A stretch of 64,000 nt of DNA from an uncultured Bacteroidales bacterium (GCA_903946925.1 CAJAXK010000015.1:3579-67578), one strand, 5' to 3'. Positions 3,999 to 29,200 are shown, counted from the first letter of the stretch. Numbers and translations: made by a program. Notes: generated from the letters alone by a model not told the origin.

Positions 3999-4016
3999 AG
4001 GCAAAAAAGAAGTTTT

Positions 4017-5846: not shown

Positions 5847-5866
5847 ATATATTTAGTTAAACATAC

Positions 5867-6631: not shown

Positions 6632-6705
6632 GGTTATTGTATTTTTGTTTAATTTGTTATTGAAGTTTTAAAGCCTAGTTCACTTTACTTCATATAGGCA
6701 TTTTT

Positions 6706-10905: not shown

Positions 10906-11901
10906 TTAGGGTACAAGTTTTAATACAACATACCGAATCACAAATTCGAGGGTGAGGAATAGCAAGGCCAGCAGTACAAAGGGTAAAAATTCTTCTTTTT
11001 TCCTGCTGAATTCGGTAACATCAATTTTTGATTTTTCGAGCCTGTCAATTTCTTTATAAACTTCCTGTAACTTCTGTTTGTTGGTTGCGCGGAAGTATTT
11101 CCCATTGGTGAGGGCCGAAATTTTTTGCAGCAAAACTTCGTCAATCTGAACTTCCATACGCTGGTATTGCCTGCCAAAAGGCGTGTTGACCGGCATTAGG
11201 GCGGTTCCCATTGTCCCAACGCCTATGGTATAAATACGGATTCCATATAGCTCGGCAATTTCGGCTGCCGATTGAGGGTCAATGGAACCCATGTTGTTTA
11301 TTCCATCAGTAAGCAGGATTATAACCTTGCTTTTTGCCTTGCTTTCCTTAAGCCTGTTCACTGCTGTTGCAAGCCCATCGCCAATGGCAGTGCCATCGTC
11401 AATCATCCCGAAATTTATATCTTTATAAAGGTTTATGAGCAGCGCATGGTTTGTTGTGAGAGGGCATTGCGTAAAGCTTTCGCCACTAAAAACCACAAGC
11501 CCGATCCTGTCGTCAGGCCTGCCGCTTATAAACTCAACAGCCACATCTTTAGATGCTTCGAGCCTGTTTGGACGCAAATCTTCGGCAAGCATAGTGCTCG
11601 AAATATCGGTTGCCAGCATAATATCGATACCTTCTACACTAATATCCTGGCGATTGAGGTTTGTTTGTGGCCTTGCCAACGCTAAAATGAGGAAAGCAAC
11701 ACCAATCATCCTTATAGCAAACAAACCATGGCGCATATAGTGTTTCCAGTCGGGTGCAGATTGTTTGAAAGCTGCCGTTGACGACATTTGCATGGGAACC
11801 GTATAATGCCTCAACTTATACCAATACAATGTAACCAATGCCGGTATTAGCAGTAGAAGCCATAAATATTCGGGAGTAGCAAAATGCAGTCTTTCTATCA
11901 T
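10906..11901 (-). CDS. batA: BatA-like VWA membrane protein
   Basis: N-terminal TM, VWA MIDAS region IDIMLATDISSTM, C-terminal TM, and a 4-nt overlap with the upstream gene. Confidence 0.85.
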   Translation of the reverse strand: MIERLHFATPEYLWLLLLIPALVTLYWYKLRHYTVPMQMSSTAAFKQSAPDWKHYMRHGLFAIRMIGVAFLILALARPQTNLNRQDISVEGIDIMLATDISSTMLAEDLRPNRLEASKDVAVEFISGRPDDRIGLVVFSGESFTQCPLTTNHALLINLYKDINFGMIDDGTAIGDGLATAVNRLKESKAKSKVIILLTDGINNMGSIDPQSAAEIAELYGIRIYTIGVGTMGTALMPVNTPFGRQYQRMEVQIDEVLLQKISALTNGKYFRATNKQKLQEVYKEIDRLEKSKIDVTEFSRKKEEFLPFVLLALLFLTLEFVIRYVVLKLVP

Positions 11902-12917
11902 GCTTTTAATTCAGGATCCGTAGTTTGTATTGGTGGTTTTGCAGCATTTTTTATGTCGGGCAACGCAACAACCGGTTTTGTGGTTTCAAGAAATTGCTTT
12001 GCATACGTCATGCTTAGCTCGTTTTCAGACCTTTGCGGGATTGCTTTTGCAAATTTGGTATAATCGGCTTGCACCAGAATGGATGAAAGTATTGCACGCC
12101 CCTCGGGCTGAAGCCCGGCCGAATCATACGCTACCAATATTTCGGAAGTAATCATTTCCATAGCTTCGATACCATGCTGTTGGAAAAGGTATTGACGCAA
12201 AATGTCGGTAAGTTCCGAATAATACTCTTTAATTTTCCCATTTTGCCATAACTTCTTGTCATCCAACAAAACAAGGTTCTGTAAGGCAATTTCCCAAGGT
12301 GGCCCTACAACTTTTGCCAACATGGGGAAAAGTGGTTTGTTCATCCTTTTCCGCCAGAAATAATACCAAATCAAACCAATAATAAGTCCAACAATAGCTA
12401 TTGCGCCAAGGTATGGGGCAATTTCCGAAAAGGTTAAAGGTGCCTGTATCGGGCCATGTATATCGCGGATTGCCCTTGTGGTATCCACTTCAACCGTGCG
12501 GACTTTCAGATAAACTGCATCTGTTAAAAGCAGGTGCCTTGAAGTATCGCCTGAATATGAGTAATATACGGTAAAAGGCGGTATGTAATGAAACCCGGTG
12601 TCGAAGGATGTGATGAGCAGGTTTTGGCTGTAATTGACAAATTCCTGACGGCTTGTAGAGTTGGTGTCAACCTTCGTTTTGTTTGCAACTTCAATCTTGG
12701 ATGTAAGTGTGTCGGCAATGGCCGGCCAATAAATTGTAGCCGTTTTTGGCAATGCCACATTAAGCCGCAGTTGCACCCGTTCCCCGATTTTGATTGAAGA
12801 GGAATCGAGGCTGAGCACTGCTTTTTGAGCCCGGGAATCGGTAAAAACCACCGAAACAATCAGAGTAAACAATATAACGAAAATGTGCCTGAAATTCATG
12901 TTCATAGTCATCCTCAT
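11898..12917 (-). CDS. Bat-operon membrane protein (BatD-like N-terminal beta-sandwich, one TM, DUF4381-like C-terminal region)
   Basis: Signal peptide, a central TM (IAPYLGAIAIVGLIIGLIWYYFW) and a C-terminal PPWEIALQNL...YYSELTDILRQYL pattern. It overlaps both neighbours by 4 nt. Confidence 0.65.
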   Translation of the reverse strand: MRMTMNMNFRHIFVILFTLIVSVVFTDSRAQKAVLSLDSSSIKIGERVQLRLNVALPKTATIYWPAIADTLTSKIEVANKTKVDTNSTSRQEFVNYSQNLLITSFDTGFHYIPPFTVYYSYSGDTSRHLLLTDAVYLKVRTVEVDTTRAIRDIHGPIQAPLTFSEIAPYLGAIAIVGLIIGLIWYYFWRKRMNKPLFPMLAKVVGPPWEIALQNLVLLDDKKLWQNGKIKEYYSELTDILRQYLFQQHGIEAMEMITSEILVAYDSAGLQPEGRAILSSILVQADYTKFAKAIPQRSENELSMTYAKQFLETTKPVVALPDIKNAAKPPIQTTDPELKA

Positions 12918-13789
12918 TGCCGCATTTCGCGTAAAGTAAATAGTTTCATCAAAGGTTTTACATAATCCTGACCAGTGCTTATGCCAGTGGTGTCAATGCC
13001 TGAACGCTTGAAAATGCCATCAATGTTTTTTTCGTGGTTTTTCCACCAAATACGGTAGTTGTCGCGCACTTTTTTGCTCGAAGTATCAACCCAAACGCGG
13101 CCCGATGATTCTTTGTCGAAAACTTCCATCATCCCTATTGAAGGAAGTTCTGCTTCCCTGGCATCGAAAACCCTGATGGCCACCAAATCGTGTTTGCCGG
13201 AGGCGATTTTTATGGATGGCTCAAAGGATTGATCCATAAAATCAGAAATGATAAATGCCGTGCAACGTTTTTTAATAGCATTGGTAAGGTAACGCAAGGC
13301 TTCCGATATGTTTGTCCCCTGGCTTTCGGGCTTAAAATCAATCAGTTCGCGGATAATCCTCAGTATGTGAGATGTGCCTTTTTTAGGTGGGATAAACTTT
13401 TCGATTTTGTCGCTAAAGAAAATCACGCCTACCTTATCGTTGTTTTGTATGGCCGAAAATGCCAGCACAGCGGCAATTTCTGTCATCAGCTCTTCCTTAA
13501 AAGAACCCTGGGTGCCAAATTCGTTGGAACCACTCACATCAATCAAAAGCATGACCATCAATTCGCGCTCCTCATCGAATATTTTGAGGAAGGGCGTGTT
13601 GAACCTGGCGGTTACGTTCCAATCAATATTACGGATATCGTCGCCAAACTGGTACTCGCGCACTTCGCTGAAAGCCATGCCACGGCCTTTAAAAGCACTG
13701 TGGTAATGCCCGGAAAAAATATTCCGCGACAAGCCCCTGGTCTTGATCTCAATACGCCTGACTTTCTTAAGAATCTCAGAGGGTTCCAC
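12914..13789 (-). CDS. DUF58 domain protein (MoxR-associated VWA-like)
   Basis: ...GHYHSAFKGRGMAFSEVREYQFGDDIRNIDWNVTAR... is the classic DUF58 core, and the gene directly follows moxR. Confidence 0.9.
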   Translation of the reverse strand: MEPSEILKKVRRIEIKTRGLSRNIFSGHYHSAFKGRGMAFSEVREYQFGDDIRNIDWNVTARFNTPFLKIFDEERELMVMLLIDVSGSNEFGTQGSFKEELMTEIAAVLAFSAIQNNDKVGVIFFSDKIEKFIPPKKGTSHILRIIRELIDFKPESQGTNISEALRYLTNAIKKRCTAFIISDFMDQSFEPSIKIASGKHDLVAIRVFDAREAELPSIGMMEVFDKESSGRVWVDTSSKKVRDNYRIWWKNHEKNIDGIFKRSGIDTTGISTGQDYVKPLMKLFTLREMRQ

Positions 13790-13857
13790 TGTGTTTCAGA
13801 ATTTGTGTGAAGGGATAAGTAACAGATGAAGATCGGATTTTTACGTAAGCAAAGTGC

Positions 13858-14850
13858 CTACGGTACCTCGACTGAGTTGAGGATTTCGTTGATAATATCT
13901 TCGGTGGTGATGTTTTCGGCTTCGGCCTCGTAGGTTAAACCAATCCGGTGGCGCAACACATCATGGGCCACAGCCCTTACATCTTCAGGGATTACATATC
14001 CGCGGCGCTTGATAAAGGCCAGCGCTTTGGCAGCCATAGCCAGGAAAATACTTGCACGTGGCGATGCACCGTAACGGATCAGGTCCTTGTATTTTTTGAG
14101 GTTGTAATCCGCAGGGAAACGGCTTGCAAATACAATATCGGTAATATAATTCTCTATTTTTTCGTCTAAATATACTTCCTTCACAATTTCCCTTGCACGT
14201 TGAATATCGGCAGGTTTCAGGATTTTGCGAGTGGAAAGCACTTCGTTGTTGATGTTTTGGCGAAGTATAACTTTTTCCTCCTGTTTGGAAGGGTAGGTAA
14301 TCACAAGTTTGAGCATAAACCTATCTACCTGTGCTTCGGGCAATGGGTACGTACCTTCCTGTTCCAAAGGGTTTTGTGTGGCAAGCACAAGGAAAGGGTC
14401 GGGGAGGGGATAGGTTTTATCGCCAATGGTTACTTGCTTTTCCTGCATGGCTTCTAGCAAGGCACTCTGCACTTTTGCAGGCGAACGGTTTATTTCGTCG
14501 GCAAGGATAAAATTGGCAAAAACCGGCCCTTTACGCACATGGAATTCCTCCTGGCGCGGACTGTAAATCATGGTGCCAACCACATCAGCCGGCAACAAAT
14601 CAGGCGTAAACTGGATACGGCTGAAACTTAAATCAATAGAATTGGCAAGCGATTTTATTGCAAGTGTTTTTGCCAGACCCGGCACGCCTTCGAGCAAAAC
14701 GTGCCCGTTGGAGAGCAGCCCAATGATAAGCCGCTCTATCATTTGTTTCTGGCCAACAATTACGCGGTGCATTTCCATGGTAAGCATATCCACAAAAGCA
14801 CTCTCGCGCTGTATTTTTTCGTTCAGTTCACTAATGTTGTTTTCTAACAT
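13858..14850 (-). CDS. moxR: MoxR-family AAA+ ATPase
   Basis: Walker A GVPGLAKT, Walker B FILADEINR, plus QNPLEQEGTYPLPEAQVDRF and ASPRASI, which are typical of MoxR. Confidence 0.95.
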   Translation of the reverse strand: MLENNISELNEKIQRESAFVDMLTMEMHRVIVGQKQMIERLIIGLLSNGHVLLEGVPGLAKTLAIKSLANSIDLSFSRIQFTPDLLPADVVGTMIYSPRQEEFHVRKGPVFANFILADEINRSPAKVQSALLEAMQEKQVTIGDKTYPLPDPFLVLATQNPLEQEGTYPLPEAQVDRFMLKLVITYPSKQEEKVILRQNINNEVLSTRKILKPADIQRAREIVKEVYLDEKIENYITDIVFASRFPADYNLKKYKDLIRYGASPRASIFLAMAAKALAFIKRRGYVIPEDVRAVAHDVLRHRIGLTYEAEAENITTEDIINEILNSVEVP

Positions 14851-15943: not shown

Positions 15944-16350
15944 GAGCAATAGGACAAAACAGGAATGTTGTTTTACCCAAAAATTTGCCTTATAAATTTA
16001 TAACAAATCAGGAATTCTACTTTACATACAAAAAAGTAACAACAGCAGGCACAGTAGGATGCAATAGGAATGTTGTTCTACAGATTGACTTCTCTTTTAG
16101 TATTTACAGAAAAAACTTCACATAAATCTGTTTAAAACAAGCGGCTTTCTTTATACTGAACTATATGCTCTATTGAGGTTCAAAGAATCATAGAGGCCAG
16201 CGTTGGTTTACTTTCTATGTGTCCTATTGTGCCTATTGCGGTTCAAAAATTGTTGGTTCTTCATATAACTTTTTCAACTACCCGCACATTTTGTCTTAAA
16301 ATGTCTTAATTTTACTAAATGCAAAATTAGCTGTTACATTTTTCAAATTC

Positions 16351-17889
16351 GTGAAATATACCCTTGTGAAAACTTATTACGAGAAAATTTGTAAAGAGTA
16401 TAATTCCGCCGACGATCTGATGAAAGCAATCGTGTTAAATAAAACTATGGTTTATTATTTCCTGATTCAGGTACTTGTTTTGGGAAATGATACCTACAAA
16501 AATATTGAAATAAATAAAGGTAAGGATAATGCCGACCAATTGCTTACCGACACCTTAATGGTTTTTCGCAGGCAGGTGAAAGATGAAAAAGTTGTTTTGC
16601 AGGTGCATGGGGGGAAAGTGTTTGTAAAAAAAGACAACCTTGAATTGTTCGATTACCTGGCCAATCTGATTTCGTTGGTGATGGAGACTAGCCCTTGTAG
16701 TGTTTTTTATGATAAATGCATCGAATTTGAGACGAAACTGATTAGTGGACAGGGATTTAGTAAAATATATGATTTAAAGGAAACCATATTTGGCGCTCTT
16801 CAAAGTTTTGGTTGTAGGGAATCTGAAGACAAAGAAGAGATTTTTGACGAAAGCCTGCTTGTGTTTTGGAAGAAACTGCAACAAGCGGAAGTCGGAATTT
16901 ACTTTACGGCTAACTATCCGAAACTGGAAAACTGCAGGGTATTTAACCGGAAATATTATCAAAACAGCAAACTTAGCACCTTTTTGAGCGGTATTGCTAA
17001 AAACATCTTTCTTAATAGAACGAGGACTTCAGAGTTCCAGGTTTCGAGGAACAGCACTGTTGAGATTACGGATCAAGATGAAGCTATAACCGGAAATTCG
17101 GAATTGGAAACGCCGGCATTATTCCTGTTTCTTTATTACCGCAACATGGTTGAAGAACGTAAACTGCGAACGGTAATTTCGCTGCTGCAATACGATTGCA
17201 ACCTCGAAGACAAGGAAGTCCGCCAACTTATCGGCATTTCCAACACCCGCATACATAGCAGCCGTTTGCGATCCCACTTTTTCGACTGGTATCAGGATAA
17301 TCTGCATCAAATTCCTGAATTATTGGATGCTGCACATGATTATCTGGCCAAAAGGGAATTGAAAAAAGAAAACCTGAATGCTAAAATCAGAACGATCGAT
17401 TTGTACCGGCGAGCTTCGCTCAATTATATCGACCTGAACATTTTCAGGGAAGAATTCCGCAGTATTCCTGAATTCAGGCAGCACTACCTGATTTTCAATC
17501 ACGTTTATTACTTTATTTCTGCTGGTAAACCAAGTGCCCTTGCCGGACTACCTGGAGAAAAAACAATGCGGGCTTTGCTGGAAATATACAAAACCAGGCT
17601 TTTTGATTTGCCCCAAAACCAGGCACTTTTACTCTTGCTGTTTTATGGCTCTGACGAGCCTGCAGAAATTATTGTCAACCTGCTCAATTGCCTTGAACAA
17701 GAATTGTTGCAATTGGAACCGAATTCGGAATCAATCGGGAATGGTAAAGGCCTTACTCTTAAAAATGCTGTTCCCAGTGATAAAGATACCCTAAAAGATG
17801 AAATTTATAAAACAAACAAAAAGCTGTACAGCAATTTAGAAGCCGATAATATCTTTACTAAAATGATCCTCGAAAATGAGACCATATAA
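16351..17889 (+). CDS. Atypical extended ECF-sigma-like protein (512 aa), tentative
   Basis: The sigma-2-like segment is DKEEIFDESLLVFWKKL...LSTFLSGIAKNIFLNRTR (about nt 16835-17030). The sigma-4/HTH-like segment is ERKLRTVISLLQYDCNLEDKEVRQLIGISNTRIHSSRLRS (about nt 17150-17290). The track start is GTG, and the first ATG alternative is at 16420. The gene overlaps the next one by 14 nt. Confidence 0.5.
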   Translation: MKYTLVKTYYEKICKEYNSADDLMKAIVLNKTMVYYFLIQVLVLGNDTYKNIEINKGKDNADQLLTDTLMVFRRQVKDEKVVLQVHGGKVFVKKDNLELFDYLANLISLVMETSPCSVFYDKCIEFETKLISGQGFSKIYDLKETIFGALQSFGCRESEDKEEIFDESLLVFWKKLQQAEVGIYFTANYPKLENCRVFNRKYYQNSKLSTFLSGIAKNIFLNRTRTSEFQVSRNSTVEITDQDEAITGNSELETPALFLFLYYRNMVEERKLRTVISLLQYDCNLEDKEVRQLIGISNTRIHSSRLRSHFFDWYQDNLHQIPELLDAAHDYLAKRELKKENLNAKIRTIDLYRRASLNYIDLNIFREEFRSIPEFRQHYLIFNHVYYFISAGKPSALAGLPGEKTMRALLEIYKTRLFDLPQNQALLLLLFYGSDEPAEIIVNLLNCLEQELLQLEPNSESIGNGKGLTLKNAVPSDKDTLKDEIYKTNKKLYSNLEADNIFTKMILENETI

Positions 17890-19144
17890 AGCACTTTTTG
17901 AAAAATACAAGGAAGGGAACCTTTCTGAAAGCGGGATCGAAGAGTTAAATCATACCCTGGTCGAAAGTTATTTTCTATGTGCTACAAAGCTCAGCAAGGA
18001 AGAGTTAGAATATGCTGAAGATATGGTTATTGAGTTATATGGAAATGGTAAATTGGAAGAAAAATTTGCAGCTCAATTTACCGAATTGCTTAAAACGAAC
18101 AGAATCCTTTCGCGAAAATTCCATTTACTCCGGAATCTAAACAAAGCAAATGAAAGTGTGCGGATGAACCAGATGTCGGGATTACTTGCTTTAGAAAATG
18201 CGCAATCAGAGCAGGAAGAAGAAGCACAATTAGCTAAAATACTGCATGAAGTGATTGAAAAAATTCATTCCGAAAAAGAAGCCACGCTGGTAAATTCCAA
18301 ATTCCAAATATTTTTATCGCAAATAATTGATTTTTTCAAAAGCCTGTTTTCAAACCTATTACCTGTTCAGCCACAATTTCGCATGGCATTTGCTTTTGCA
18401 ACCTTTGTTATTATTGCTGGTATCGTTTGGGTTTCAGTCAAACCTGAAGACAAAAAATTGATAAGTACTAATGCTGGGAGAGACACAATCCAAAAAAATC
18501 AATTGATTCATGAGGATTCAAATCAACTGAAAGAAATTGAAGTTAAACCCGAAATTAACAAACCTCAATATGCTTATGCCGATTCAGTAAGTAACCAGAA
18601 ACTGATAAAAGATCAGGTTGCCCAAATACAAAAAACAGTTAGAGTGCCTGACAGCGTTTCAAGGGAATTAGATATGGCACTCTTGGCGTATGCCAGCGAA
18701 ATTCCAGCCGGCATGGATTATATTGAATTACGGTCAGAATCATCGTCAGCGAACGATTTATTTATAGATGCGGCTGAAAAATACAACAATAAAGATTACA
18801 ATGGTTGTGCATTGATTTTGAAGGATTTGCTAAAAAGCAATCAATTCAAATCAGTTGATACCCTCAGCGTGATTAACCATTACCTTGGTATTATTTCAAT
18901 GAATGAAGGATTTAAAACAACAAATCGAAAAGCACTGAAGCAGGCAATCCAATTCTACAGTAAGGTTGACAAAAGTTCAACTTATTTTAGCGATTCGCAG
19001 TGGTATTGCGCACTGTCGGAAATCAAACTGGGAAATCAAACAAAAGGGATTCAGATTCTTAATTCACTGCCGGAAAACAATAATCAAAGAGCCGCAGAAT
19101 TGAAGTTATTAAAGGAAAAACTGACGACAAACACTTATAAATAA
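17876..19144 (+). CDS. Single-pass membrane protein, anti-sigma-factor-like, with an extracytoplasmic TPR-like domain (tentative)
   Basis: The N-terminus ALFEKYKEGNLSESGIEELNHTL resembles the opening helix of Bacteroidota anti-sigma/FecR-type proteins. It has one TM (FRMAFAFATFVIIAGIVWVSV) and C-terminal TPR-like helices. It is coupled to the sigma-like gene. Confidence 0.5.
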   Translation: MRPYKALFEKYKEGNLSESGIEELNHTLVESYFLCATKLSKEELEYAEDMVIELYGNGKLEEKFAAQFTELLKTNRILSRKFHLLRNLNKANESVRMNQMSGLLALENAQSEQEEEAQLAKILHEVIEKIHSEKEATLVNSKFQIFLSQIIDFFKSLFSNLLPVQPQFRMAFAFATFVIIAGIVWVSVKPEDKKLISTNAGRDTIQKNQLIHEDSNQLKEIEVKPEINKPQYAYADSVSNQKLIKDQVAQIQKTVRVPDSVSRELDMALLAYASEIPAGMDYIELRSESSSANDLFIDAAEKYNNKDYNGCALILKDLLKSNQFKSVDTLSVINHYLGIISMNEGFKTTNRKALKQAIQFYSKVDKSSTYFSDSQWYCALSEIKLGNQTKGIQILNSLPENNNQRAAELKLLKEKLTTNTYK

Positions 19145-19296
19145 CCAGGATTTCGGATGATTTTCAAGGCATTAGATACAATTTCTTGATTTCTTCGTAT
19201 ATTTGTATTCAATACTATTTCCTTGTAAGCCTGCCATATCTGCAATTACGAAAATTGAAGTTTCAAAAAATAATTTTAATCCTTAAATCCAGTAAT

Positions 19297-19653
19297 ATGA
19301 AAAAAACATTCTTTTTCGTGGCATTCCTTGTTTTGGTAATTGCCATAGTGATTTCATCATGCATCCAGCATAATGGCGGTGTTTTAGTTTCTGAGAGCGA
19401 TGGTGACCGTGGCAGCAAAATAATACGTGATACAACCAGAAAGTCGGATAGTGTTGTCAAGCTAGATCAAATCTATAAATTTAAAATTGAAGGAACTGAT
19501 TACACCAAGGAGGTCAAGACAATTACACTCCAGATTACTGGATCAGCAGAGAAAATAGATATGCTAACAGAGGCTGGTAATGGCATATACAAAATCCGGT
19601 ACGGCTTTATAAAGGCCAGCAAAGAAGAAAGACTAAAAGCTGAGCAAAAATAA
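19297..19653 (+). CDS. Small lipoprotein (118 aa)
   Basis: MKKTFFFVAFLVLVIAIVISSC is a signal peptide with a lipobox Cys. I chose the internal ATG at 19297 of track ORF 19186-19653 because the upstream extension lacks signal features. Confidence 0.65.
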   Translation: MKKTFFFVAFLVLVIAIVISSCIQHNGGVLVSESDGDRGSKIIRDTTRKSDSVVKLDQIYKFKIEGTDYTKEVKTITLQITGSAEKIDMLTEAGNGIYKIRYGFIKASKEERLKAEQK

Positions 19654-19891
19654 ACTTTCAAATTGGTTGAATGTAAGAAGTGGTTAGTTCATTTCCTTCC
19701 ACTTTTTACAAGGAATCAATGCCAAAATGCGTGAAAAATCCTCCACAAAGATTGGGGGATGGTTAGGTTATTTGTTGCTTTGCCGTTGAGAATTCAGGGA
19801 GAATAATTTTTGGGTAATTCAAATTCTCTGCGTGTTTATTGCAAATCATGCCAAGTTTTATGGCTTTTTCATACAAACAAAAACCAACAAA

Positions 19892-20113
19892 ATGAAAAAA
19901 ACATTTTTCACCCTGGCTTTTGCCCTCTTTTGGGTATGTCTGATGGTTGCTTCCTGCAGCACCAATCCATCCCCGGGAAATGGCGAAAAACAATCAAGTG
20001 ACAGCATTGCTACAAAATCAGATTCCGTCCCTCAAGCAACTACATCTGATGGTAAAGTTGTTGTATCCGAAGGGGATATGGAACAGGCATCAAGTGACAG
20101 TGTTGATAAATAG
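19892..20113 (+). CDS. Small Ser/Asp-rich lipoprotein (73 aa), paralogous to 19297-19653
   Basis: MKKTFFTLAFALFWVCLMVASC lipoprotein signal (internal ATG of track ORF 19832-20113). It shares KSDSV and G-x-V-x-VSE-x-D motifs with the preceding lipoprotein. Confidence 0.6.
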   Translation: MKKTFFTLAFALFWVCLMVASCSTNPSPGNGEKQSSDSIATKSDSVPQATTSDGKVVVSEGDMEQASSDSVDK

Positions 20114-20295
20114 TGATTTTGTCGGGATGTATTAGAATACTTTGATTTTTCTTGATTTCTGGCTGTTATCCGTTTGTTCAAGATAGGGGAACAGGTGAAA
20201 TCAAGAAGTGGAATCGCTCTTTACTAAGTATAGAGGGAAAATCTTACATGGAATGAAGGATTCGGGCTAAAAGTGAGTGTAATCCAGGTTAAAAA

Positions 20296-23200
20296 ATGAA
20301 AAAGCCATTTCCCATTTATTTTTTAGGACTATTTTTCATTATTGCCAGCATTGCTTCAGCTCAGGATAGTGAAGTCAATCTCAAACAGGCGGGCGAGTAT
20401 TACAAGCAAGGCTATTTTGCAAAGGCTTCGTCGTTGTACGACACCCTGCTCCTTGGCTTAGAATCGGCAAAAACTGTTAATGATACAGCCTATCTTCATA
20501 AACTTAAATTAGCCGGAAATTGTTACCGTTCGTCGGGACAATACGAAAAGGCTTTACAAGTGTTTGCCGAACTAAAAAAATTACATTCAGATGTAAAAGA
20601 ACCAGATAGTTTAATATATGCATCTGATTTGAATGATATTGCCAAATGCTTTTATTTTTTGGGCAAATATGATACCGCCTTATCTTTATTCAATAAATCC
20701 AGGAATTTAAGACTGAATCGTTTGGGTCCCCATCACCCCGACTATGCTGAGTCCATAGACGATATTGGTGTATTGTATTGTGATATTGGTAAATACACTG
20801 AATCATTGCCGCTATTGGAAGAAGCAAAGAAAATAAGGCTTGAAGTATTGGGCGACAAACACCTTGATTGTGCTAAATCCCTCGACAACCTTGGATCCTA
20901 TTATTATGTTATTGGTAATTACAAGGCGGCTTTGCCTTTTTTCGAACAGGCTGTCAATATTAAGTTATTAACCCTTGGCGAAAATCATCCTTCTTATGCC
21001 CGATCGCTGAACAACCTGGCTGCCCTATATTATTCAATGGGTGATTACAAAGCAGCTTTGCCCTTATACTTGACAGTTTCGTCAATCGACAAGGAAAAAC
21101 TTGGTAACCGGAACCTTGATTATGGTGTTGACCTGAACAACCTGGCAATGCTTTATAAAAAAACAGGCAACTATAAAGCTGCCTTGCCTTTGCTCAAAGA
21201 ATTTTCGTCGATATGTAAAGAAAAAGTAGGTGTCAACCATACTTATTATGCTTCATCACTTATGAATTTAGGTGCGATGTACTCAGCAATGTATGTATAT
21301 GATACAGCACTGCTTTACTACCAGCAGGCAAAACAAATCCGTCAGGAGCAGCTTGGCACTAACCATGCCGATTATGCAAGGGTTTTAAATAACCTGGCCT
21401 TGGTAAACAAAAATTTATGTAACTATGAAATTGCATTGAGTTATTATAAGGAAGCATTAAACATTTACCTGAAGGTGTTTGATAAACAACATATTGAATA
21501 TGCAAGGACATTGAACAACATTGCCATCCTGTATGTAAAGCTTGGAAATTATGATGAAGCCTTGCTCCTTTATGAAGAGGCAATAGCTGTAAGCAAACCG
21601 GATGCGGCTTCCGGGAAACAGGATTACTCGCTTGCTTTAAACAACCTGGGTTTGCTTTACAGCGATATGGGCAACTATGAGGAGGCAATCCGCCTGTTGA
21701 CTAAAGCAGCCTATATCGACAGTTTATCGCTGGGGGCAAAGCATCCTTATTATGCAACTGATTTGATAAACCTTGCCAATAATTATTCGGCCATTGGTAA
21801 AAACCAAGAGGCCATTAAAAGGCAAAAGGAGGCAACAGCTATTTATCTCGAAAAATTCGGTGAAATGAATCAGATGTATGCTCTTTCGCTCAGTAGCCAG
21901 GGTCGCCTGTTTAATTCAATGGGGGAATATAATACCGCTTTGCCTTTGTTTTTGCAGGCTACTGCAATCTACAAAGAAGTTTTGGGAATACATCATGCCG
22001 ACTATGCCATGTCGTTAAAGAACCTGGCTTTAAATTACAAAAAAATGGGGGATTACCCGGCCGCATTGCCCCTGTTGGAAGAAGCATCAGTAATTTATAA
22101 AGAGTTGTATGGAGCCAACTATTCTGATTACGATGATTGCAGGTATAATATGGCTGAAATTTACTTTGCCCGTGAAGATTATAATTACGGGCTGCCGCTG
22201 ATGGAAGAGGTTAATACCAATATTAAAAACCGTATCCGGAACTATTTTTCATTTTTGCCTGAAAGTGAAAAGAAAATGTATATGGCTAAAGTTGGGGATT
22301 TTTACGATGAATACCTCTCTAGCCTTTTAAAGGTTTCAGGGAATTATCCCGAGTTATGCAGCGAAGTTTATAATAACGAGCTATTCCTAAAGGGTGTAAT
22401 CCTTTCCTCAGTCACTTCTATGCAACAATCTATTCTCGAAAGTGGCGACTCGGTTTTAATAGGTGAATATGAACAAATGCGGATGCTGAAAAGACAAGTC
22501 AATTTATGGCAGCAACGACAAATTTCGGAAAGGCATGCGGATTTGACAGAAATAGAACTGCAATCACAGCAATTGGAAAAGGATATTACGCGGCATTCGC
22601 AGATATTTAGCGAGATGCAGGCATCCTTCAACGTAAAATGGAAAGATGTTCAGAAACAACTTAAAGATGGGGAAGTTGCCATCGAATTTGTCAATTTCAG
22701 GTATTCGGATAATGAAAAAATCACTGACAGCATTTTCTATTGTGCTCTTGTCCTGCGAAAAGATGACACAATCCCTCAATTGAAATACCTATGCGAAGAG
22801 TCTCAATTAAAGAAAGTTATTCCTCCCATCAGAGCTGTAAATCGTGGAATTAACGCATTTTATAATGGACAGGATATTTACAATCTGGTGTGGAAGCCGA
22901 TTAATAGTTCACTCAATGGAATCCAAACTATCTACTTTGCGCCATCGGGTTTGCTAAACAGGATTTCGATGGCAGCCATTTCGTGCCCCGACAGTATTGA
23001 GCTATTAGAGAAATACAAGTTGATTCAGCTCAGTTCAACCCGGTCGATTGCCATTGCCGGAAAACATAAGCCGATTAAAACTGCTGTAATTTATGGTGGA
23101 ATAGTGTATGATACCGATTCACTTACAATGCTTTCAACGGCAAACTTGTATGTACAAAAAGACAGTAGTTTTCTTACTCAAAGCCACACGACAAGCATCG

Positions 23201-23886
23201 ATACCAGGAGTGGGTTCAGATATCTGCCCGGTACCTTGAAAGAAGCAGAAATGATTGCCGGTAAGCTGGAGAAAAACGGTGTGTCCACAAAAACTATCTC
23301 TGGAACTGATGCTGTGGAAGAATCTTTCATTGTTTTGTCACGAAATGAATCCCCATCCATCATCCATTTTTCTACTCATGGATTTTATTTTCCAGAACCC
23401 AATCGAACGGCTGTCAATAACAAAAACACATATTCAACAACCGGAGAAACGAGGTTCCGGGCTTCAAGCGATCCTTTGTTGCGCTCAGGATTGCTGATGG
23501 CAGGAGCTAATCGGGTTTGGAAAGGTTCATTTACTTCGCAAGATATTGAAGATGGAATTCTGACAGCCAAGGAAGTCTCGAATATGAACCTGATGAATAC
23601 CCAATTAGTGGTATTAAGTGCATGTCAGACCGGACAAGGCGACGTTAAAGGTAATGAAGGCGTTGAAGGCTTGCAAAGGGGGTTTAAAATGGCTGGTGCC
23701 CGGTATATGATAATGAGCCTTTGGGAAGTGCCCGACAAGGAAACTACAGAGTTTATGGGTATTTTTTACGACAATTGGCTCGAAGGAAAGGAAATTCACG
23801 AAGCTTTCCGCAATACCCAGAATATTATGAACGATAAATATAAAAGCGACCCTTTTAAATGGGCCGCTTTCGTTCTGGTTGAGTAA
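20296..23886 (+). CDS. Exported TPR-CHAT protein (caspase-like cysteine protease domain)
   Basis: Sec signal MKKPFPIYFLGLFFIIASIASA/QD. About 13-14 TPR_12-like repeats follow (LG.NHPDYA.SLNNLA.LY..MG.Y..ALPL) and then a coiled-coil linker. The C-terminal CHAT domain has His in IIHFSTHGF (codon at 23377-23379) and Cys in VVLSACQTGQG (codon at 23623-23625). Confidence 0.85.
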   Translation: MKKPFPIYFLGLFFIIASIASAQDSEVNLKQAGEYYKQGYFAKASSLYDTLLLGLESAKTVNDTAYLHKLKLAGNCYRSSGQYEKALQVFAELKKLHSDVKEPDSLIYASDLNDIAKCFYFLGKYDTALSLFNKSRNLRLNRLGPHHPDYAESIDDIGVLYCDIGKYTESLPLLEEAKKIRLEVLGDKHLDCAKSLDNLGSYYYVIGNYKAALPFFEQAVNIKLLTLGENHPSYARSLNNLAALYYSMGDYKAALPLYLTVSSIDKEKLGNRNLDYGVDLNNLAMLYKKTGNYKAALPLLKEFSSICKEKVGVNHTYYASSLMNLGAMYSAMYVYDTALLYYQQAKQIRQEQLGTNHADYARVLNNLALVNKNLCNYEIALSYYKEALNIYLKVFDKQHIEYARTLNNIAILYVKLGNYDEALLLYEEAIAVSKPDAASGKQDYSLALNNLGLLYSDMGNYEEAIRLLTKAAYIDSLSLGAKHPYYATDLINLANNYSAIGKNQEAIKRQKEATAIYLEKFGEMNQMYALSLSSQGRLFNSMGEYNTALPLFLQATAIYKEVLGIHHADYAMSLKNLALNYKKMGDYPAALPLLEEASVIYKELYGANYSDYDDCRYNMAEIYFAREDYNYGLPLMEEVNTNIKNRIRNYFSFLPESEKKMYMAKVGDFYDEYLSSLLKVSGNYPELCSEVYNNELFLKGVILSSVTSMQQSILESGDSVLIGEYEQMRMLKRQVNLWQQRQISERHADLTEIELQSQQLEKDITRHSQIFSEMQASFNVKWKDVQKQLKDGEVAIEFVNFRYSDNEKITDSIFYCALVLRKDDTIPQLKYLCEESQLKKVIPPIRAVNRGINAFYNGQDIYNLVWKPINSSLNGIQTIYFAPSGLLNRISMAAISCPDSIELLEKYKLIQLSSTRSIAIAGKHKPIKTAVIYGGIVYDTDSLTMLSTANLYVQKDSSFLTQSHTTSIDTRSGFRYLPGTLKEAEMIAGKLEKNGVSTKTISGTDAVEESFIVLSRNESPSIIHFSTHGFYFPEPNRTAVNNKNTYSTTGETRFRASSDPLLRSGLLMAGANRVWKGSFTSQDIEDGILTAKEVSNMNLMNTQLVVLSACQTGQGDVKGNEGVEGLQRGFKMAGARYMIMSLWEVPDKETTEFMGIFYDNWLEGKEIHEAFRNTQNIMNDKYKSDPFKWAAFVLVE

Positions 23887-23891
23887 CTGAA

Positions 23892-23912
23892 GGAGAAGGA
23901 TTCTTCTTCTCC
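23892..23912. terminator. Hairpin between convergent genes (candidate bidirectional terminator)
   Basis: GGAGAAG (23892-23898) pairs with CTTCTCC (23906-23912) around a 7-nt loop. It lies between the CHAT stop (23886) and the stop of the minus-strand gene (23915). Confidence 0.4.
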
Positions 23913-23914
23913 GC

Positions 23915-24454
23915 TTATCTTTTATCGCTAATATTCGCCATTCCATTGTTATTCAAATCCATAATCGTTCCAACTATGTTGTTGCAATATCCTGAATAGC
24001 GGTGAACATCCAAAGCATGGTCAATTATCATAGTATAGGGTAGGACCGGAATATTCATAGCCCTTTTCAAATCATTGTTCCTGTCGATAAAGACATCGAA
24101 ACCTATTGCTAATCCACTTACAAGCGGACGGATACTTTGCATGGTGCATGAATAATTGGTGCAAATGCCGACTATTTTTACTTTTCCGCTAAAAATCTGA
24201 TTTTCATATTCTTCATTGAGTAATCTCAACTGCTCAATACTTCTATTGTCATCCGCATTCCAGAAGAAAAGAACCGTTGTGCTGTTTTTCGCATCTATAG
24301 AACTGGCACTGGCAGTTGATCCTTCCAAAGTATAAATTTTGACATCAGGAAGAATCAATTTTTGGGACATCGCAGAAAATGCCGCAGATAACAAGGCATT
24401 AATCAAAAAAAATCTGAAGGTTTTCATAACATTATTATTTGAAAGGTTAAACAT
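23915..24454 (-). CDS. Secreted thioredoxin-fold (TlpA/AhpC-TSA-like) protein lacking the CXXC motif
   Basis: TVLFFWNADDNRSIEQLRLLNEEYE aligns to the FWA(S/T)WCxPC region of TlpA-like proteins, but both Cys are replaced. The likely true start is MKTFRFF at 24427, which gives a signal peptide. Confidence 0.55.
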   Translation of the reverse strand: MFNLSNNNVMKTFRFFLINALLSAAFSAMSQKLILPDVKIYTLEGSTASASSIDAKNSTTVLFFWNADDNRSIEQLRLLNEEYENQIFSGKVKIVGICTNYSCTMQSIRPLVSGLAIGFDVFIDRNNDLKRAMNIPVLPYTMIIDHALDVHRYSGYCNNIVGTIMDLNNNGMANISDKR

Positions 24455-25210
24455 CTTTCAAATCAATGTGTGTTTTATTAATAATGTAACAGTCCAGGAT
24501 TTTTAATAGTCTGGCACATTTAATTTTATTGTTTTGAATTCAAAATCCCGCATTTCAAGATCCTAAAATTTAATTGTAGTTTATAATAAAAGGAGGAATG
24601 CTTACTGTTCCTAAGAATTCAGTTTTGTGGCTTTATAACTATACAATATTCCTTTTAAATATTGCATATAAATGAAAATCAGATATTTAAAAATTATTTT
24701 ATAAAAATCGCGAATAACTGTTACAAAAAAAGAAGGCCCTACATATACTATCGAACAACATCATGCAGTACGTAAATCGGGAGTTAAAACGGAACTGAAA
24801 TTTGCAAATCTGAGTTTCCCGATGAAAGTAAACCAAAAACCAAAAACCTCCTAAAACCTTATAGCCATGGAACCAAATACTGATTATCTGAAAGACCAAA
24901 CAGTTGCAACGCTAATGGCCTTAGTTTACTTCGCCATCCTGACATTCATTTCGATACTGACAACTTAAATTTTTTTTGAAAAAAATTGATTGTCTGTTAC
25001 ACATTGAAAAAACTCCACATTTAAAGTAAAACACACGATTATGAAACCTCACTCAAAATCAAATTCCAGGGCAAGTCCTTCCGATAGCCCTCTGCCAGAC
25101 CAAAAACAGTAATCCATTTTTGGCGAAAAAAGGCAGCAAAAGCTGAAATCAAAAATCAAATAGCCTGAAAATCAAAAAAAACTTTTAACAACCATTAAAT
25201 CCCCAAAACC

Positions 25211-26098
25211 ATGAAAACAATTAATTTCCTTCTCGTGTCACTTATGACCAGTGTTGTCCTGTTCTCTGCATGTCAAAAAGATGAGCTAGACGTAGTACCA
25301 ACCACCAGCAAGAATGAGGCTGAGTATAAAGCAGTTTTGCCTGCCCCACCCACTGTAAACCTAAACTGGCAGGACGACTTTACATCGGCCAGCTCATTAC
25401 CATCAAACTGGAATCTTTATGGTAAATCCCTGCCAACATTTGTCCCCTTTGCAGGAAACAGGTACGGCCTGTTCGATAATAATGGCAAGCTGCCTGATGG
25501 AAGTTTTGCTGTTTCAAAAAGAAAAATTGGCTATGGCCGCGGCTATACAATTGAATCAGACGTTTTTATTGATGTAAACAAACCTCTATCCGGCACTGTA
25601 ATCTGCCCTGAAATCGGTGTAGCGCAAAATGTTATTGAACCATCAAGCGGAGGCACTGTTGCAGAAGGAATTTCAATGAAACTGATGTATATTGGCCAAG
25701 GCGTTTCCAATGTTGATCCTGCTTACCACACACGTACAGTTATTCTGATGTCGGTGCTTTTACAGAACGGAAATATTATAACTTCCGGTGAACTTGGCAG
25801 CGCCCCTACTGACTCATTCGATAATTATGCCCTCCCTATCACGACAGCTACTTCAAAATGGCATAAAATGAAAATAGTGGTAAATTCCTTAGGCCGTGTT
25901 TCGTTCTATCTTGATAACAAGTTCGTATGGTCACCAGCAATGCCGGCACATCCTTCGCTCATGAAAAACAGAAGCGTAGTCCTTGGTTTCTCCTCTCCTG
26001 GTAACGGCGGCAAAGCATACCACGACTACGTAAAGGTAACCTATCCCTCAAACATTGAACTGCAATCAGTAAATAGTGCAGAGCAAACGATAAACTAA
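25211..26098 (+). CDS. Lipoprotein, possibly with a concanavalin-A-like / LamG-like beta-sandwich (tentative)
   Basis: Signal plus lipobox VLFSAC. The C-terminal WHKMKIVVNSLGRVSFYLDNKFVW pattern is typical of lectin/glucanase-fold domains. Confidence 0.6.
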   Translation: MKTINFLLVSLMTSVVLFSACQKDELDVVPTTSKNEAEYKAVLPAPPTVNLNWQDDFTSASSLPSNWNLYGKSLPTFVPFAGNRYGLFDNNGKLPDGSFAVSKRKIGYGRGYTIESDVFIDVNKPLSGTVICPEIGVAQNVIEPSSGGTVAEGISMKLMYIGQGVSNVDPAYHTRTVILMSVLLQNGNIITSGELGSAPTDSFDNYALPITTATSKWHKMKIVVNSLGRVSFYLDNKFVWSPAMPAHPSLMKNRSVVLGFSSPGNGGKAYHDYVKVTYPSNIELQSVNSAEQTIN

Positions 26099-26254: not shown

Positions 26255-29200
26255 CTATTCCGGATTCTTTGGTGTTTCTATCTTCTTTTTTCTTGTAAAC
26301 AGTTCTTTAAAAGTATTGAATTCCTTCCGGAACCCTATGCCAATACCTTGTGTATAAAGTGAATATCCTGAGTAATCGAGTGTTGTGTTTGTACGGTTAA
26401 AGGCTCTGCCAACCAAACGGCCATCTTCTGTAATTTTTACCTCAACCAGCACATCGCCAATAAACTGCGACGATTGGTCCGAAACATTGGTGGTTTGCCC
26501 AACAGCCCCATCAATGGTAACACGGTTGTTAAATAGCTGGGTGGAAAGTGCAAGCTCCAACTCCTGTGGCGAAATCTGATCGCCTGGACGATAATTCACC
26601 CCAATATCAAAATCCTTCGAAATTTGCGAAAGCATCCGGCTCAATTGGGCACTAATAATATCATAAGATGAAATGCCAAGGGAAGCACCAGTGGTTGAAA
26701 TCCCTGATGAAGAACTGAACGTGTTGAGCACCAAGAGAGAAATCATTTGCTGGTTCATTTCAAGTGCATTCGAGGTGTCAATAAGTGCGAAAATAGCCCT
26801 TTTTACCTCTTCGCTTGCATCGGGCAAGGCAATGCTGAACTTAATATCGGGATTGTATAAATTATTGGTCAGCGAAACCAAACAATTTACATTTAAGCGG
26901 GTTGACTTTGGCAAACCGGCAATTTCGGGTAAGCCCGCTAACGAAGTTTTTACTTTATATACCGCCTGCAACCTAATATCTGAGTCGAATGGGCTTCCGT
27001 TAAATGTAATAACACCGCCTTTTTGAATCTGGAAGTTCTTCTTCAATATGTTTTCGAAATTGAATAAAAAATCGCCATTGTCCATTACAAACTGGCCAAA
27101 CATGGAGTAATCGCCCCGCGAATCAATTCCCATATTTATTAAACCATCACCACGAACATCAATATTGCCCATATTGTAAGGCAGTATAATACCAATATTG
27201 GCATTCCGGGTTACATCAAGCCCAAGTTGAAGCGAAAGGACCGATGGTTCTTCGGGAATAATTTGATTATCAATATCAAGCTCATTATGTACCGTATAAT
27301 GGATAAAGTCGTTCTCGGAAATATTGCGGGCAAAACTTATAGGGATAAAAACACCTGTACCTTTATCGGAAGTTAAATTTGCTTTTAAAACAAGGTCATC
27401 CACAGGGCCTTTAATTGTCATTGTGCCACTTGCCTTTGCCCTTCCATAATACGCTTCGTTGGGGTTGTATGGCGTGTTGAGGGCCGAAAGTTTGTCGGCT
27501 TTCAACGTAATATCAAGGGCAAAATCCGAAAAAGCCTTATGGTGTATAAACCCGGAAACTACCCCTGTGCTCATAGTAGTGTCAGTTAGCACCAAATCCT
27601 TGAACCACATCAAATCTTTATCGAAATTAAAATCGCCGGTAAAGGAATAGGAAGTCCGCAAATAATCGACCAAGAGTTCTGAACGCATAAGTTTTACTTT
27701 TCCTTTGAGAACTGGGTCGGAAAAATCGCCTGTAAATGTTAAAGCCCCCGAAATGTAGCCCCGGATGCGGGAAAAAACCCCTTCGAGGAAAGGTTCAATG
27801 GTTCGAAGTTTCAAATTGTCCACATCAACCGTGAGGTCGAAATTATCGTGTTCTTGTTCAGGATATATGTTGCCAAGTACTTTTATTGGATAATGAGTGC
27901 CGGCATTGCCCACAAACACAACCCGCAAATCGACTCCTATAAGGCTTTTGTCGCTGTCCCAATAGCTTTTCAATTCGGCATCCCCAAGGCTTTCGTGGTT
28001 AAACCCAAATTTTTTAATACTGATATCCGCCGACACACGAGGAACGGCATACAGCTCCGAAACCGTCAATTTCCCATCAACATAGCCATCAAAATCAATC
28101 CCTATTTGCTCTGTCAACACATCGGTTTGCGAAATGTTAAAACCTTTAATGTCTAATTCCATTTGGCTTAACGGGTCAACGGAAGCTATCCCATTCAGGT
28201 AAATATGGTTATCTTTATTTGTGAAACCCATTTTGGTGATTTCGATATACGATGTGTCGATAATTGCCAGGTTTCCGGGTATCGATCTCCAAACTGTATC
28301 ATTTACCATTATTTCGGCATTATCGAAACGTAATGCAAGCCGTGGCATTTGCACAAAAGAAATTGCGCCCGAAATATCCCCTTTATTGTGGTCGGGGATT
28401 TTAAAATCGTCCCATCTGATTCCAAATTTTACACTGTCGTTGGCCGCAATTGCCGTTAATTTGAATTGTTCAATGCTTTTAATCGTTGTATCAGGTTTAA
28501 CCTTGGTCGAAGTGTTGATTTTGCTGCAATCCATTGCAACTAAAAGTTGGTTATTAACAGTTGACCCAACCAAAGTCCAATCGTGCAGCACAAAACCGTT
28601 CAATATTAGCATTGGTGAATGGCCATTAACGTTAACCTCTCCAAGTTCAGGCTCAAACTTTCCGGAAATTACTGTTTCCGGATCCATTTTAATCCAGGGG
28701 ACGAACATCGAAGTTAACGAATCGGTATCGTGTAACTGAATAGTATAATCGAAACGCCCGCGATTTATGCGTTCCGGGCTTTTTCCGGTGGCCGATAGCG
28801 ATGGGAGGAAATCTGTAAAAGCCATTGTCAGATATTCGGCCATATCGTCAAATGTGTATTGTCCCGAGAACACGGCATTTACGAAATCACTTTTAACATC
28901 CATCTGTTTGCCCCCGTTTTCGAGTGATTGGGTATGAACGGAAAGCTCGTCCATTTTCAAGGTTCGTTGCCCGAGCGTAAAAGAGGTATTGGTAAAACTG
29001 AGCGACCCAATCAAGTTGTCGATGGAATTGCCCTGAAAATTAAAATTGGTTTTGGTTGACAGTGTAACCGCAGAATCGGAAGTTATAAGGTTAAGTTTAT
29101 TTAAGTCGGCATACTCCAGGCCTGCAACAAAATCGAAAGCTGGTAGCGTATCCGAAAAATCGGCCGATCCGTTAAAATCGAAGCTCAGCAGTTTATCGTT

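Follow-up and report, generated by a model that had tools for sequence, protein, structure and literature searches.

The locus described here, a putative envelope-signalling module, lies in a 64,000-nucleotide (nt) stretch of DNA from an uncultured Bacteroidales bacterium (the window; all coordinates refer to it unless a related locus is named, L- and P-numbers denoting related loci or contigs and protein clusters). Between 16351 and 23886 the list of open reading frames (ORFs) contains five genes, all on the + strand: a large protein resembling extracytoplasmic function (ECF) sigma factors (g1), a membrane protein with a single transmembrane (TM) helix (g2), two small lipoproteins (g3, g4) and an exported protease of the caspase fold with tetratricopeptide repeats (TPR) and a CHAT domain (g5) (Table 1). 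Number, orientation and position of these genes agree with an earlier note on this DNA, made from the sequence alone, as does the 14-nt overlap of g1 and g2 (g1 ends at 17889, g2 starts at 17876), which suggests translational coupling. The note had also described the block as lower in GC. This difference is marginal (38.5% versus 40.2%, with 8% of stretches of the same size as low); as the value is not unusual, a low-GC island or horizontal transfer was rejected.

Table 1. Features of the locus and its surroundings (positions in the window).
Feature	Position	Strand	Remarks
MoxR-type AAA_3 ATPase, DUF58/vWA protein, weak sub-threshold DUF4381 match	11898-14850	-	Bat-like operon, upstream flank
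g1-type motif TGTTACA-N15-AAAT(ATA)	16332..16361	+	ends 5-8 nt before g1 start codon
g1, putative divergent extended ECF-like sigma-70 family protein	16351..17889	+	ORF of 512 aa, GTG start
g2, single-pass membrane protein	17876..19144	+	422 aa; anti-sigma-like by position and architecture
12-mer TTCTTGATTTCT then TATATTTG (TAnnTTTG-type box)	19183..19205	+	upstream of g3
g3, lipoprotein	19297..19653	+	118 aa; lipobox ISSC; GVLVSESDGD after Cys; small C-terminal folded part
g4, Ser/Asp-rich lipoprotein	19892..20113	+	73 aa; lipobox VASC; motif GKVVVSEGD
12-mer TTCTTGATTTCT, second copy	20149-20160	+	upstream of g5
g5, exported TPR-CHAT caspase-fold protease	20296..23886	+	1196 aa; signal peptide ...ASA|QD; His1027/Cys1110
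Terminator-like hairpin	23892..23912	+	directly after g5
Secreted thioredoxin-fold (AhpC/TSA-like) protein	23915..24454	-	Pfam AhpC-TSA 3.9e-7
Target-type motif TGTTACA-N15-ACAT	24466..24491	-	11 nt before thioredoxin-like gene start
Target-type motif	24719..24744	+	upstream of 33-aa ORF
33-aa single-TM peptide ORF (MEPNTDYLKDQTVATLMALVYFAILTFISILTT)	24867..24968	+	between thioredoxin-like and 295-aa lipoprotein genes
Target-type motif	24995..25020	+	upstream of 295-aa lipoprotein gene
295-aa lipoprotein	25211..26098	+	no Pfam match; homologues in L001, L003-L006, L012
TamB homologue	26255-30670	-	1471 aa; downstream flank

The protease g5 is matched by the Pfam models TPR_12 (4.4e-109, 10 stretches), TPR_10 (11 stretches) and, over residues 858-1195, CHAT (PF12770, 7.8e-55; 186.8 bits against a cut-off of 24). 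His1027 (IIHFSTHGF) and Cys1110 (LSACQTGQG) are invariant in 8/8 homologues, all of which begin with a signal peptide and have Gln right after it. Gln in this +1 position agrees with the Bacteroidetes Q-rule for substrates of signal peptidase I (PMC5837995). Since g5 has no tail for secretion by the type IX system (T9SS), it is likely periplasmic. Pfam and the homologue alignment thus bear out the earlier description of g5 as a Sec-exported protein with TPR_12-type repeats and a CHAT domain with both catalytic residues. The sole PDB sequence match of the CHAT part is 8ROT chain B, which is Myxococcus DdvA (E 0.015).

The true start of g1 is probably the second GTG at 16366, which gives a protein of 507 aa: this is the length of database cluster P0001, the N-terminus MKTYYEK then resembles that of homologues (MKTYYQE in L010), and the start codon lies 8 nt after the upstream promoter-like motif (see below), in most relatives the gap between motif and ATG being 6 nt. 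The g1 family comprises 42 clusters at 90% identity, all of ~500 aa and all from metagenome-assembled genomes (MAGs) of Bacteroidales/Bacteroidota, and every named member is called 'hypothetical'. A family-profile search of 1.84 billion representative proteins gave 18 hits.

An AlphaFold2 (AF2) model of g1, built on a 37-sequence alignment (predicted local distance difference test score, pLDDT, 86; predicted TM-score, pTM, 0.53), contains a sigma-2-like part at approximately residues 136-224 (helices 136-152, 158-177 and 208-224) that is interrupted by a β-hairpin insert (residues 181-207). A short, disordered linker like that of ECF sigmas spans residues 226-253 and leads to a sigma-4-like part of four helices (residues 255-316). 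The model also has confident additional helical domains at residues 1-131 and 318-512. The best PDB matches found by Foldseek are the ECF sigmas SigL, RpoE/NepR, SigW/RsiW and SigH (E 0.3-2.6), with SigL (6dv9_F, E 0.31, prob 0.92) on top; ECF sigmas thus head the matches of the structure prediction that the earlier note had proposed for g1 alone. The alignments span whole ECF sigma structures, and the scores are weak because just one third of the model aligns.

At the level of the family, the sequence searches point in the same direction. Sigma70_r2 is found below threshold in 11/37 members and above the Pfam cut-off in one, P0060 (24.6 bits against 24). The sub-threshold NCBIfam matches across the family are nearly all to sigma-70/ECF models, among them TIGR02985 (Sig70_bacteroi1; 11/37 members) and TIGR02952 (best 2.1e-5), and the SigY, SigM and SigW models also recur. 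With the hairpin insert removed, the family consensus matches positions 9-67 of the 71 of Sigma70_r2 (E 0.001), a post hoc edit that counts as supporting evidence only. In the 1.84e9-protein library the family profile reaches P0065, P0066 and P0067 at E 3e-5 to 1e-4, the true Sigma70_r2 proteins among them at E 6e-5 to 1e-4. P0066 and P0067, ~182 aa each, match Sigma70_r2 (6.5e-11 and 24.1 bits respectively), and P0065 (335 aa) matches Sigma70_r4_2 (27.2 bits, cut-off 25.7). When P0065 is compared with the g1 family by hhalign (prob 96%), the same insert is seen between regions 2.2 and 2.3; a homologue search with P0065 found one only. For sigma-4, neither g1 nor the family consensus has a Pfam match, and the g1 profile aligns weakly with region 4.2 of FliA (E 1.5). 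The conserved positions of g1 coincide with the expected sigma regions 2.1-2.4 and 4.1-4.2. When all ORFs of the window and the related loci were searched with Escherichia coli RpoE, no ECF sigma was found.

The support that hidden Markov models (HMMs) and Foldseek give to the window g1 is therefore sub-threshold, and convincing at family level only. The sigma-2-like and sigma-4-like segments proposed in the earlier note hold as remote homology, on the family profile and Foldseek, and no curated model recognizes them in the window protein; likewise the HMM search suggested there left the window protein unmatched and found its sub-threshold Sigma70_r2 signal in other family members. With 507-512 aa, g1 is also well outside the size of ECF sigmas, which consist of sigma-2 and sigma-4 only (~170-250 aa). 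These data point to g1 as a very divergent, oversized sigma-70 protein of the ECF branch that lies outside current curated models. Such a clade would be invisible to Pfam cut-offs and so probably absent from ECF classifications. As a separate observation, residues 1-125 of g1 (16351-16725) repeat the helix-plus-β-hairpin pattern of the sigma-2-like part (ADQLLTDTLMVFRRQVKDEKVVLQV versus KEEIFDESLLVFWKKLQQAEVGIYF). By hhalign, the N-domain aligns to sigma-2 with a prob of only 33%, and the comparison of the C-domain with sigma-4 gave nothing; an internal duplication in the N-domain is possible but unproven.

Directly after g1, in every locus with sequence at this position, lies g2. The two genes overlap in most loci, and g2 starts 6-10 nt downstream in L006, L010, L015 and L017. 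Behind the distant relatives P0065 (335 aa) and P0068 (373 aa), too, comes in each case a TM protein that has TPR matches; in the P0065 partner, the TPR part can be aligned with the g2 family (hhalign E 1.4e-5). The AF2 model of g2 (10 sequences, pLDDT 62 overall) starts with four helices (residues 3-12, 18-34, 41-56 and 62-74; pLDDT 72-85), followed by a long helix with a strongly conserved acidic stretch, EEEAQLAKILHEVIEKIHSE, at approximately residues 110-134. The TM helix (166-187), a disordered region (188-258) and a helical domain (290-400) complete the protein. Because g2 has no signal peptide and 165 hydrophilic residues precede the TM helix, its N-terminus is presumably cytoplasmic and the C-terminal domain periplasmic. 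This domain matches three-repeat, peptide-binding TPR structures in Foldseek (TM-score to target 0.7-0.8, prob 1.0), so that the extracytoplasmic TPR-like domain claimed for g2 is now predicted as a three-TPR fold. Foldseek matches of g2 are dominated by this domain, and the N-terminal bundle was matched to no structure of an anti-sigma domain (ASD). Of the earlier reading of g2 as an anti-sigma-type protein, the position and the single TM stand, and four N-terminal helices are predicted; a match to an anti-sigma family or a zinc motif was not found. The linker of g2 is variable except for a semi-conserved motif, [YIL]-A-x-x-D-S, which reads YAYAD236-S in the window (residues ~229-237, 18560-18585). 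We speculate that it is a docking or cleavage site. The motif is absent from L010, a locus without its CHAT gene.

The lipoproteins g3 and g4 had been described as paralogues. Both have lipoboxes, and their paralogy is weak, being confined to the signal peptide and one short motif, G-[VI]-[VIL]-V-[SA]-[ED]-[GS]-D, with little else alike. This shared acidic motif may, speculatively, be another docking or cleavage site. Homologues of g3 occur in L003, L004 and L011. What lies between g2 and the protease gene varies across loci: in L005, L006 and L012 there are one or two small secreted proteins of low conservation, the majority of them bearing a lipobox, in L008 a secreted ankyrin-repeat protein, and in the P0013 contig a 1310-aa protein.

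Alignment of the regions upstream of g1 revealed a bipartite motif, CTGTTACA-N15-(G)AAAT, immediately ahead of the g1 start codon in ten loci (the window, L002-L008, L010 and L016). In most of them the gap to the ATG is 6 nt, and the mRNA may thus be leaderless or nearly so. A target-type motif with the same -35-like heptamer, TGTTACA-N15-(T/C)ACAT, is repeated in like orientation upstream of genes nearby. In 267 kb we counted 41 sites, versus 0.6 (maximum 3) in shuffled sequence, and the spacing is 15 in every hit of a search open to 14, 15 and 16. Apart from two or three, the sites have the orientation of a module gene and precede its start codon by 6-200 nt. A fifth CTGTTACA in the window (60571, - strand) was treated as a chance occurrence; it lies within a + strand gene, lacks the -10 part and has no minus-strand gene downstream. 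At the motif level, the g1 upstream regions of ten loci thus have the form of an autoregulated promoter with fixed -35/-10 spacing; an autoregulated ECF sigma is typically marked by such a bipartite element, constant in spacing and also present before the gene of the regulator itself. We infer that g1 is the factor that reads the motif because the motif accompanies g1 also where the other neighbours differ (L010, L016, L018). We found no published sigma promoter of the TGTTACA form in the literature.

By this motif, g1 is tied to the genes for the thioredoxin-like protein, the 33-aa peptide and the 295-aa lipoprotein, so that the module appears to reach past 23886. Homologues of the thioredoxin-like protein lie near the module in seven loci (L001, L003, L004, L010, L011, L012 and the P0035 contig). 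It lacks redox cysteines, the WCxxC position reading FFWNADDNRS here and IFWNSNDKKS in L010, and is probably a non-catalytic thioredoxin-fold protein. The 33-aa ORF has a counterpart with 84% identity in L003 and, by alignment, similar ORFs at the same position in L004, L005 and L012. In relatives, the motif precedes genes for FeeM-type synthases, an ICMT/PEMT-type methyltransferase, small secreted proteins, giant Fib_succ_major/DUF8237 proteins and a protein with a T9SS tail; where DNA was available, most FeeM and ICMT genes carry TGTTACA-N15-TACAT. In the window, none of g3, g4 and g5 has a TGTTACA motif directly upstream, and the protease genes in L016 and L018 (see below) lack one upstream as well.

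The neighbourhood of the pair was compared in 11 genome loci and further contigs, which together provide 13 places with enough flanking sequence to judge; this sample is small and phylogenetically narrow, consisting of related Bacteroidales MAGs. An exported caspase-fold protease is found near g1/g2 in 13/13 informative loci, which bears on the neighbourhood conservation that the earlier note had proposed to test. The protease is of the TPR-CHAT type in the window, L003, L004, L005 (the same locus as L001), L006, L011 and L012. In L008 two tandem TPR-CHAT genes are complete, and a third TPR-rich paralogue begins before the end of the locus cuts it off. Two proteins rich in TPR are encoded in the P0013 contig, one of 1063 aa and the other of at least 1120 aa; CHAT is not among their Pfam matches listed, and its assignment is probable only. 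In L016 and L018/L019 the place is taken by a Peptidase_C14-TPR protein, encoded on the opposite strand and provided with a signal peptide or lipobox, and in the P0035 contig by a 1580-aa Ank/WD40/Peptidase_C14 protein. Because the caspase-fold families swap, with other repeat domains and on the other strand, vertical synteny is insufficient as an explanation and a functional link between pair and protease is indicated. This displacement of one protease family by another is the strongest evidence for the link.

L010 at first looked like an exception, since g2 is followed there by FeeM, ICMT and then the thioredoxin-like gene. Between the ICMT-like and thioredoxin-like genes, where g5 would end, lies a 44-aa remnant of a CHAT C-terminus (L010 15030-15161, + strand; 43% identity to g5 residues ~1158-1196). 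It seems that the FeeM and ICMT pair (13015-14552, + strand) has taken the place of the TPR-CHAT gene. The same locus contains an operon (3095-6652, + strand) for a 506-aa secreted protein and a 604-aa secreted C14-like caspase-domain protein (SGHG...DACFSG), the C14-like gene lying 4 kb upstream. A near-exact g1-type promoter motif (TTGTTACACTTTGCCAAAACCTGAAATA) precedes this operon.

Genes for FeeM-type N-acyl amino acid synthases were seen near g1/g2, in one or two copies, in L016, L018/L019, L010 and the P0035 contig, and an ICMT/PEMT-type membrane methyltransferase in L018, L010 and the P0035 contig (not in L016); neither gene is present in the 64-kb window. Their occurrence suggests an acylated amino-acid lipid among the outputs. 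In the most divergent locus with a full-length g1, L015, a CsgG-like protein and a streptopain-type Peptidase_C10 with a T9SS tail are encoded before the pair (2497-6141, + strand). This contig stops right after the g2-like gene, and the downstream protease slot is outside its sequence.

We found no terminator-like site on the + strand between the stop codons of g2 and g5. Since the first such hairpin comes only after g5, g1-g5 possibly form one transcript. The 12-mer found before g3 and before g5 is kept at both places in L003, and these TTCTTGATTTCT elements are possible internal promoters or operators distinct from the TGTTACA type. The TAnnTTTG-type box that follows the first copy may be a -7 box of the primary sigma factor, as in Bacteroides promoters. 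A scan for promoters with the E. coli-type consensus stayed at chance level, and an Rfam search of the long intergenic spacers gave no structured RNA match. Both flanks of the locus are ordinary chromosomal genes. A class I methyltransferase is encoded in the upstream flank besides the MoxR/DUF58 operon, and this flank differs among relatives, one contig having a type I restriction system there and another T9SS cargo. A phage or mobile origin was rejected when viral contigs yielded no relatives, as was the identity of a defence system, for which PADLOC returned nothing but generic TPR models.

The earlier note had compared the locus with the type III-E CRISPR system. Craspase combines Cas7-11 and the TPR-CHAT protease Csx29 with Csx30 and an ECF-type sigma factor, sigma being controlled by cleavage of a sigma-binding protein. 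In PMC10028731 the TPR-CHAT protease is genetically linked to the control of an ECF-type sigma. This parallel stands in so far as TPR-CHAT is linked to sigma control. Craspase, however, is cytoplasmic, RNA-guided and CRISPR-encoded, whereas g5 has a Sec signal peptide and a membrane partner, and neither Cas7-11, a CRISPR array, Csx30 nor Csx31 was found in the window region or the related loci.

The closest precedent is instead the DdvS/DdvA system of Myxococcus, in which the anti-sigma factor, DdvA, has a TPR-CHAT domain on its periplasmic side, the removal of which permits RseP-dependent cleavage (PMC11506125). Both systems combine a sigma-70-family factor with a single-pass membrane partner, a TPR-CHAT with His/Cys dyad on the periplasmic side and a flexible linker between TM helix and periplasmic domain as the proposed cleavage site, and the proposed logic, CHAT acting site-1-like before intramembrane proteolysis, is the same. 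They differ in that TPR-CHAT is here a separate secreted protein of 1196 aa, g2 keeping a small 3-TPR domain; that g2 lacks the CHCC zinc anti-sigma domain; that g1, at ~507 aa with extra domains, falls under all curated sigma models; and that envelope proteins, in place of CBASS or CRISPR-Cas, are the products of the neighbouring or regulated genes. The present module is from Bacteroidota, whereas the fused DdvA type has been reported only in Myxococcota and one Comamonas.

Classical pairs such as RpoE-RseA and SigW-RsiW share with g1/g2 the co-transcribed single-pass partner, a probable autoregulated bipartite promoter and, for g1, the Foldseek matches to SigW/RsiW, RpoE/NepR and SigL structures. 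In contrast to them, g1 has ~130 additional N-terminal and 190 additional C-terminal residues and a hairpin in sigma-2, g2 has no anti-sigma domain recognizable by sequence, and the candidate site-1 protease is of the caspase fold instead of a serine protease (DegS) or PrsW. ECF41 and ECF42 (PMC7826278) resemble g1 in combining an ECF core with a large extra domain that possibly contacts sigma-2 and sigma-4. ECF groups with C-terminal extensions typically lack an anti-sigma factor (PMC7826278), whereas here the membrane partner is always present, and the extensions of g1 match no known type. In the ECF reclassification paper there is no mention of CHAT contexts. The module thus resembles DdvS/DdvA and, more loosely, Craspase, and is a member of neither. 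New are an unclassified extended sigma-like clade, a split arrangement of anti-sigma factor and caspase-like protease in Bacteroidota, and a predicted promoter code with its regulon.

We propose, and would give about an even chance, that the locus encodes a sigma/anti-sigma envelope-signalling module on the chromosome of an uncultured Bacteroidales bacterium, with a dedicated periplasmic caspase-like protease on its input side. In this model g2 would most likely keep g1 inactive through its cytoplasmic N-terminal helices. g5 would be the dedicated periplasmic partner of the two, most likely on the input side, which fits with the lack of the motif directly upstream of g3, g4 and g5. It would cut the disordered periplasmic linker or the TPR domain of g2 in the manner of a site-1 protease or, alternatively, the small lipoproteins g3/g4 that would gate it. 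The fusion of both functions in DdvA is 'Rosetta stone' evidence by analogy, and for this reason the pair and the protease may well act on each other. The cut would start regulated proteolysis and release g1. Free g1, which presumably binds RNA polymerase, would then guide the enzyme to TGTTACA-N15-(T/C)ACAT promoters, those of nearby envelope genes and, with the variant -10 GAAAT, of its own operon. The targets in the window would be the cysteine-less thioredoxin-fold protein, the 33-aa membrane peptide and the 295-aa lipoprotein; in relatives they would also include FeeM-type synthases, the ICMT-type methyltransferase, giant Fib_succ_major proteins and T9SS substrates. Both the sequestration of g1 by g2 and the cleavage of g2, g3 or g4 by the protease are predictions of this model. 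Its most specific form, that g1 represents an unrecognized extended sigma-70 clade with the promoter code TGTTACA-N15-TACAT and is gated in trans by secreted CHAT/C14 proteases that cleave its partner at the Asp-containing linker motif, we regard as possible and rather doubtful.

Several observations weigh against this model. The window g1 passed no curated sigma model, having no Pfam (E<=1), NCBIfam or PDB sequence match; its Foldseek E-values are weak (0.3 or worse); and E. coli RpoE did not match the g1 family profile significantly, though the register was as expected. The ~320 extra residues could regulate g1 without any anti-sigma factor. For g2 and 10 family members no anti-sigma match was obtained in Pfam, NCBIfam or PDB, even at E<=10, and the alignment of g2 residues 1-100 has no conserved His/Cys motif of the HxxxCxxC zinc type, so that it is position and architecture that suggest an anti-sigma role. 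Direct searches of g1 and g2 in these databases, by single sequence and by profile, yielded nothing significant. A different, unlinked sigma factor could read the TGTTACA promoters. Part of the synteny is vertical inheritance, the loci being from related Bacteroidales MAGs. The sites in the g2 linker and in g3/g4 are speculative as cleavage candidates, and self-cleavage of the linker beside the TM helix by CHAT is, even for DdvA, an unproven proposal of its authors (PMC11506125). Finally, since g5 lies downstream of g1-g4 and no terminator-like site follows the g2 stop, it may be a co-expressed output.

This last point leads to the most serious rival, in which pair and regulon work as proposed above and the protease is an output or maturation enzyme for envelope proteins, with g3/g4, the 295-aa lipoprotein or the giant adhesin-like proteins as possible substrates. 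g2 would then sense the signal by its own periplasmic TPR domain and be cut by an unrelated site-1 protease. Such a role would suit the orientation of g5, the same as that of g1-g4 and with no intervening terminator-like site, and the peptide-binding type of the TPR domain that g2 owns. The regulon is rich in exported proteins that are potential substrates, and the C14-like gene of L010, being in an operon with a g1-type promoter, would be co-expressed with the sigma operon. However, the target-type motif is never found on protease genes, and the proteases of L016 and L018 are on the opposite strand and lack it. The protease is moreover the most constant neighbour of the pair, whereas the putative substrates differ by locus, and the DdvA fusion physically links TPR-CHAT to an anti-sigma factor. 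We consider an output role somewhat unlikely.

It is improbable, in our view, that g1 is not a working sigma factor at all and serves as a sigma-derived scaffold or another DNA-binding regulator, the motif being read by another sigma or acting as an operator. The failure of the window g1 in curated sigma models would then be expected, and its size (2.5-3 times that of an ECF sigma), the β-hairpin within sigma-2 and a pTM of only 0.53, which makes the domain arrangement uncertain, can be read in the same way. On the other hand, the conserved positions fall at the expected regions 2.1-2.4 and 4.1-4.2, the bipartite motif with its fixed 15-nt spacing, 6-200 nt before start codons that include that of g1, is the hallmark of an autoregulated ECF promoter, and it accompanies g1 in L010, L016 and L018, where the other neighbours have changed. 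Very improbable, finally, is the alternative offered in the earlier note, a stand-alone conflict or cell-death effector with no functional tie to the genes around it: CHAT and TPR-CHAT proteins are known from defence contexts such as Craspase (PMC10028731) and PADLOC gave two weak matches of g5, both to generic TPR models, but g5 is exported and not cytoplasmic, has no NTPase or other conflict-system sensor domain by Pfam, sits in a chromosomal context (MoxR/DUF58 upstream, TamB downstream) and has no relatives on viral contigs, and the association with g1/g2 outlasts replacement of the protease family and change of strand, holding in 13/13 loci even with C14 in place of CHAT.

If the most specific form of the model is correct, caspase-like proteases would, as a general class, serve as site-1 proteases in the envelope signalling of Bacteroidota, and the locus would be the missing 'split' counterpart that explains the origin of the fused DdvA type. 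DdvA is the one studied case of an anti-sigma factor with CHAT, and its switching-on by self-cleavage is a proposal. With protease and anti-sigma factor as separate proteins, cleavage could be tested cleanly in vitro with purified parts; since all members come from uncultured MAGs, experiments are harder, and the split design suits in vitro work. A sigma-like family that is missed by standard domain models also matters for the annotation of the ECF-rich genomes of Bacteroidota. The content of the predicted regulon, N-acyl amino acid synthases, a membrane methyltransferase, giant surface proteins and T9SS substrates, points to envelope remodelling as what these bacteria would control through the module.

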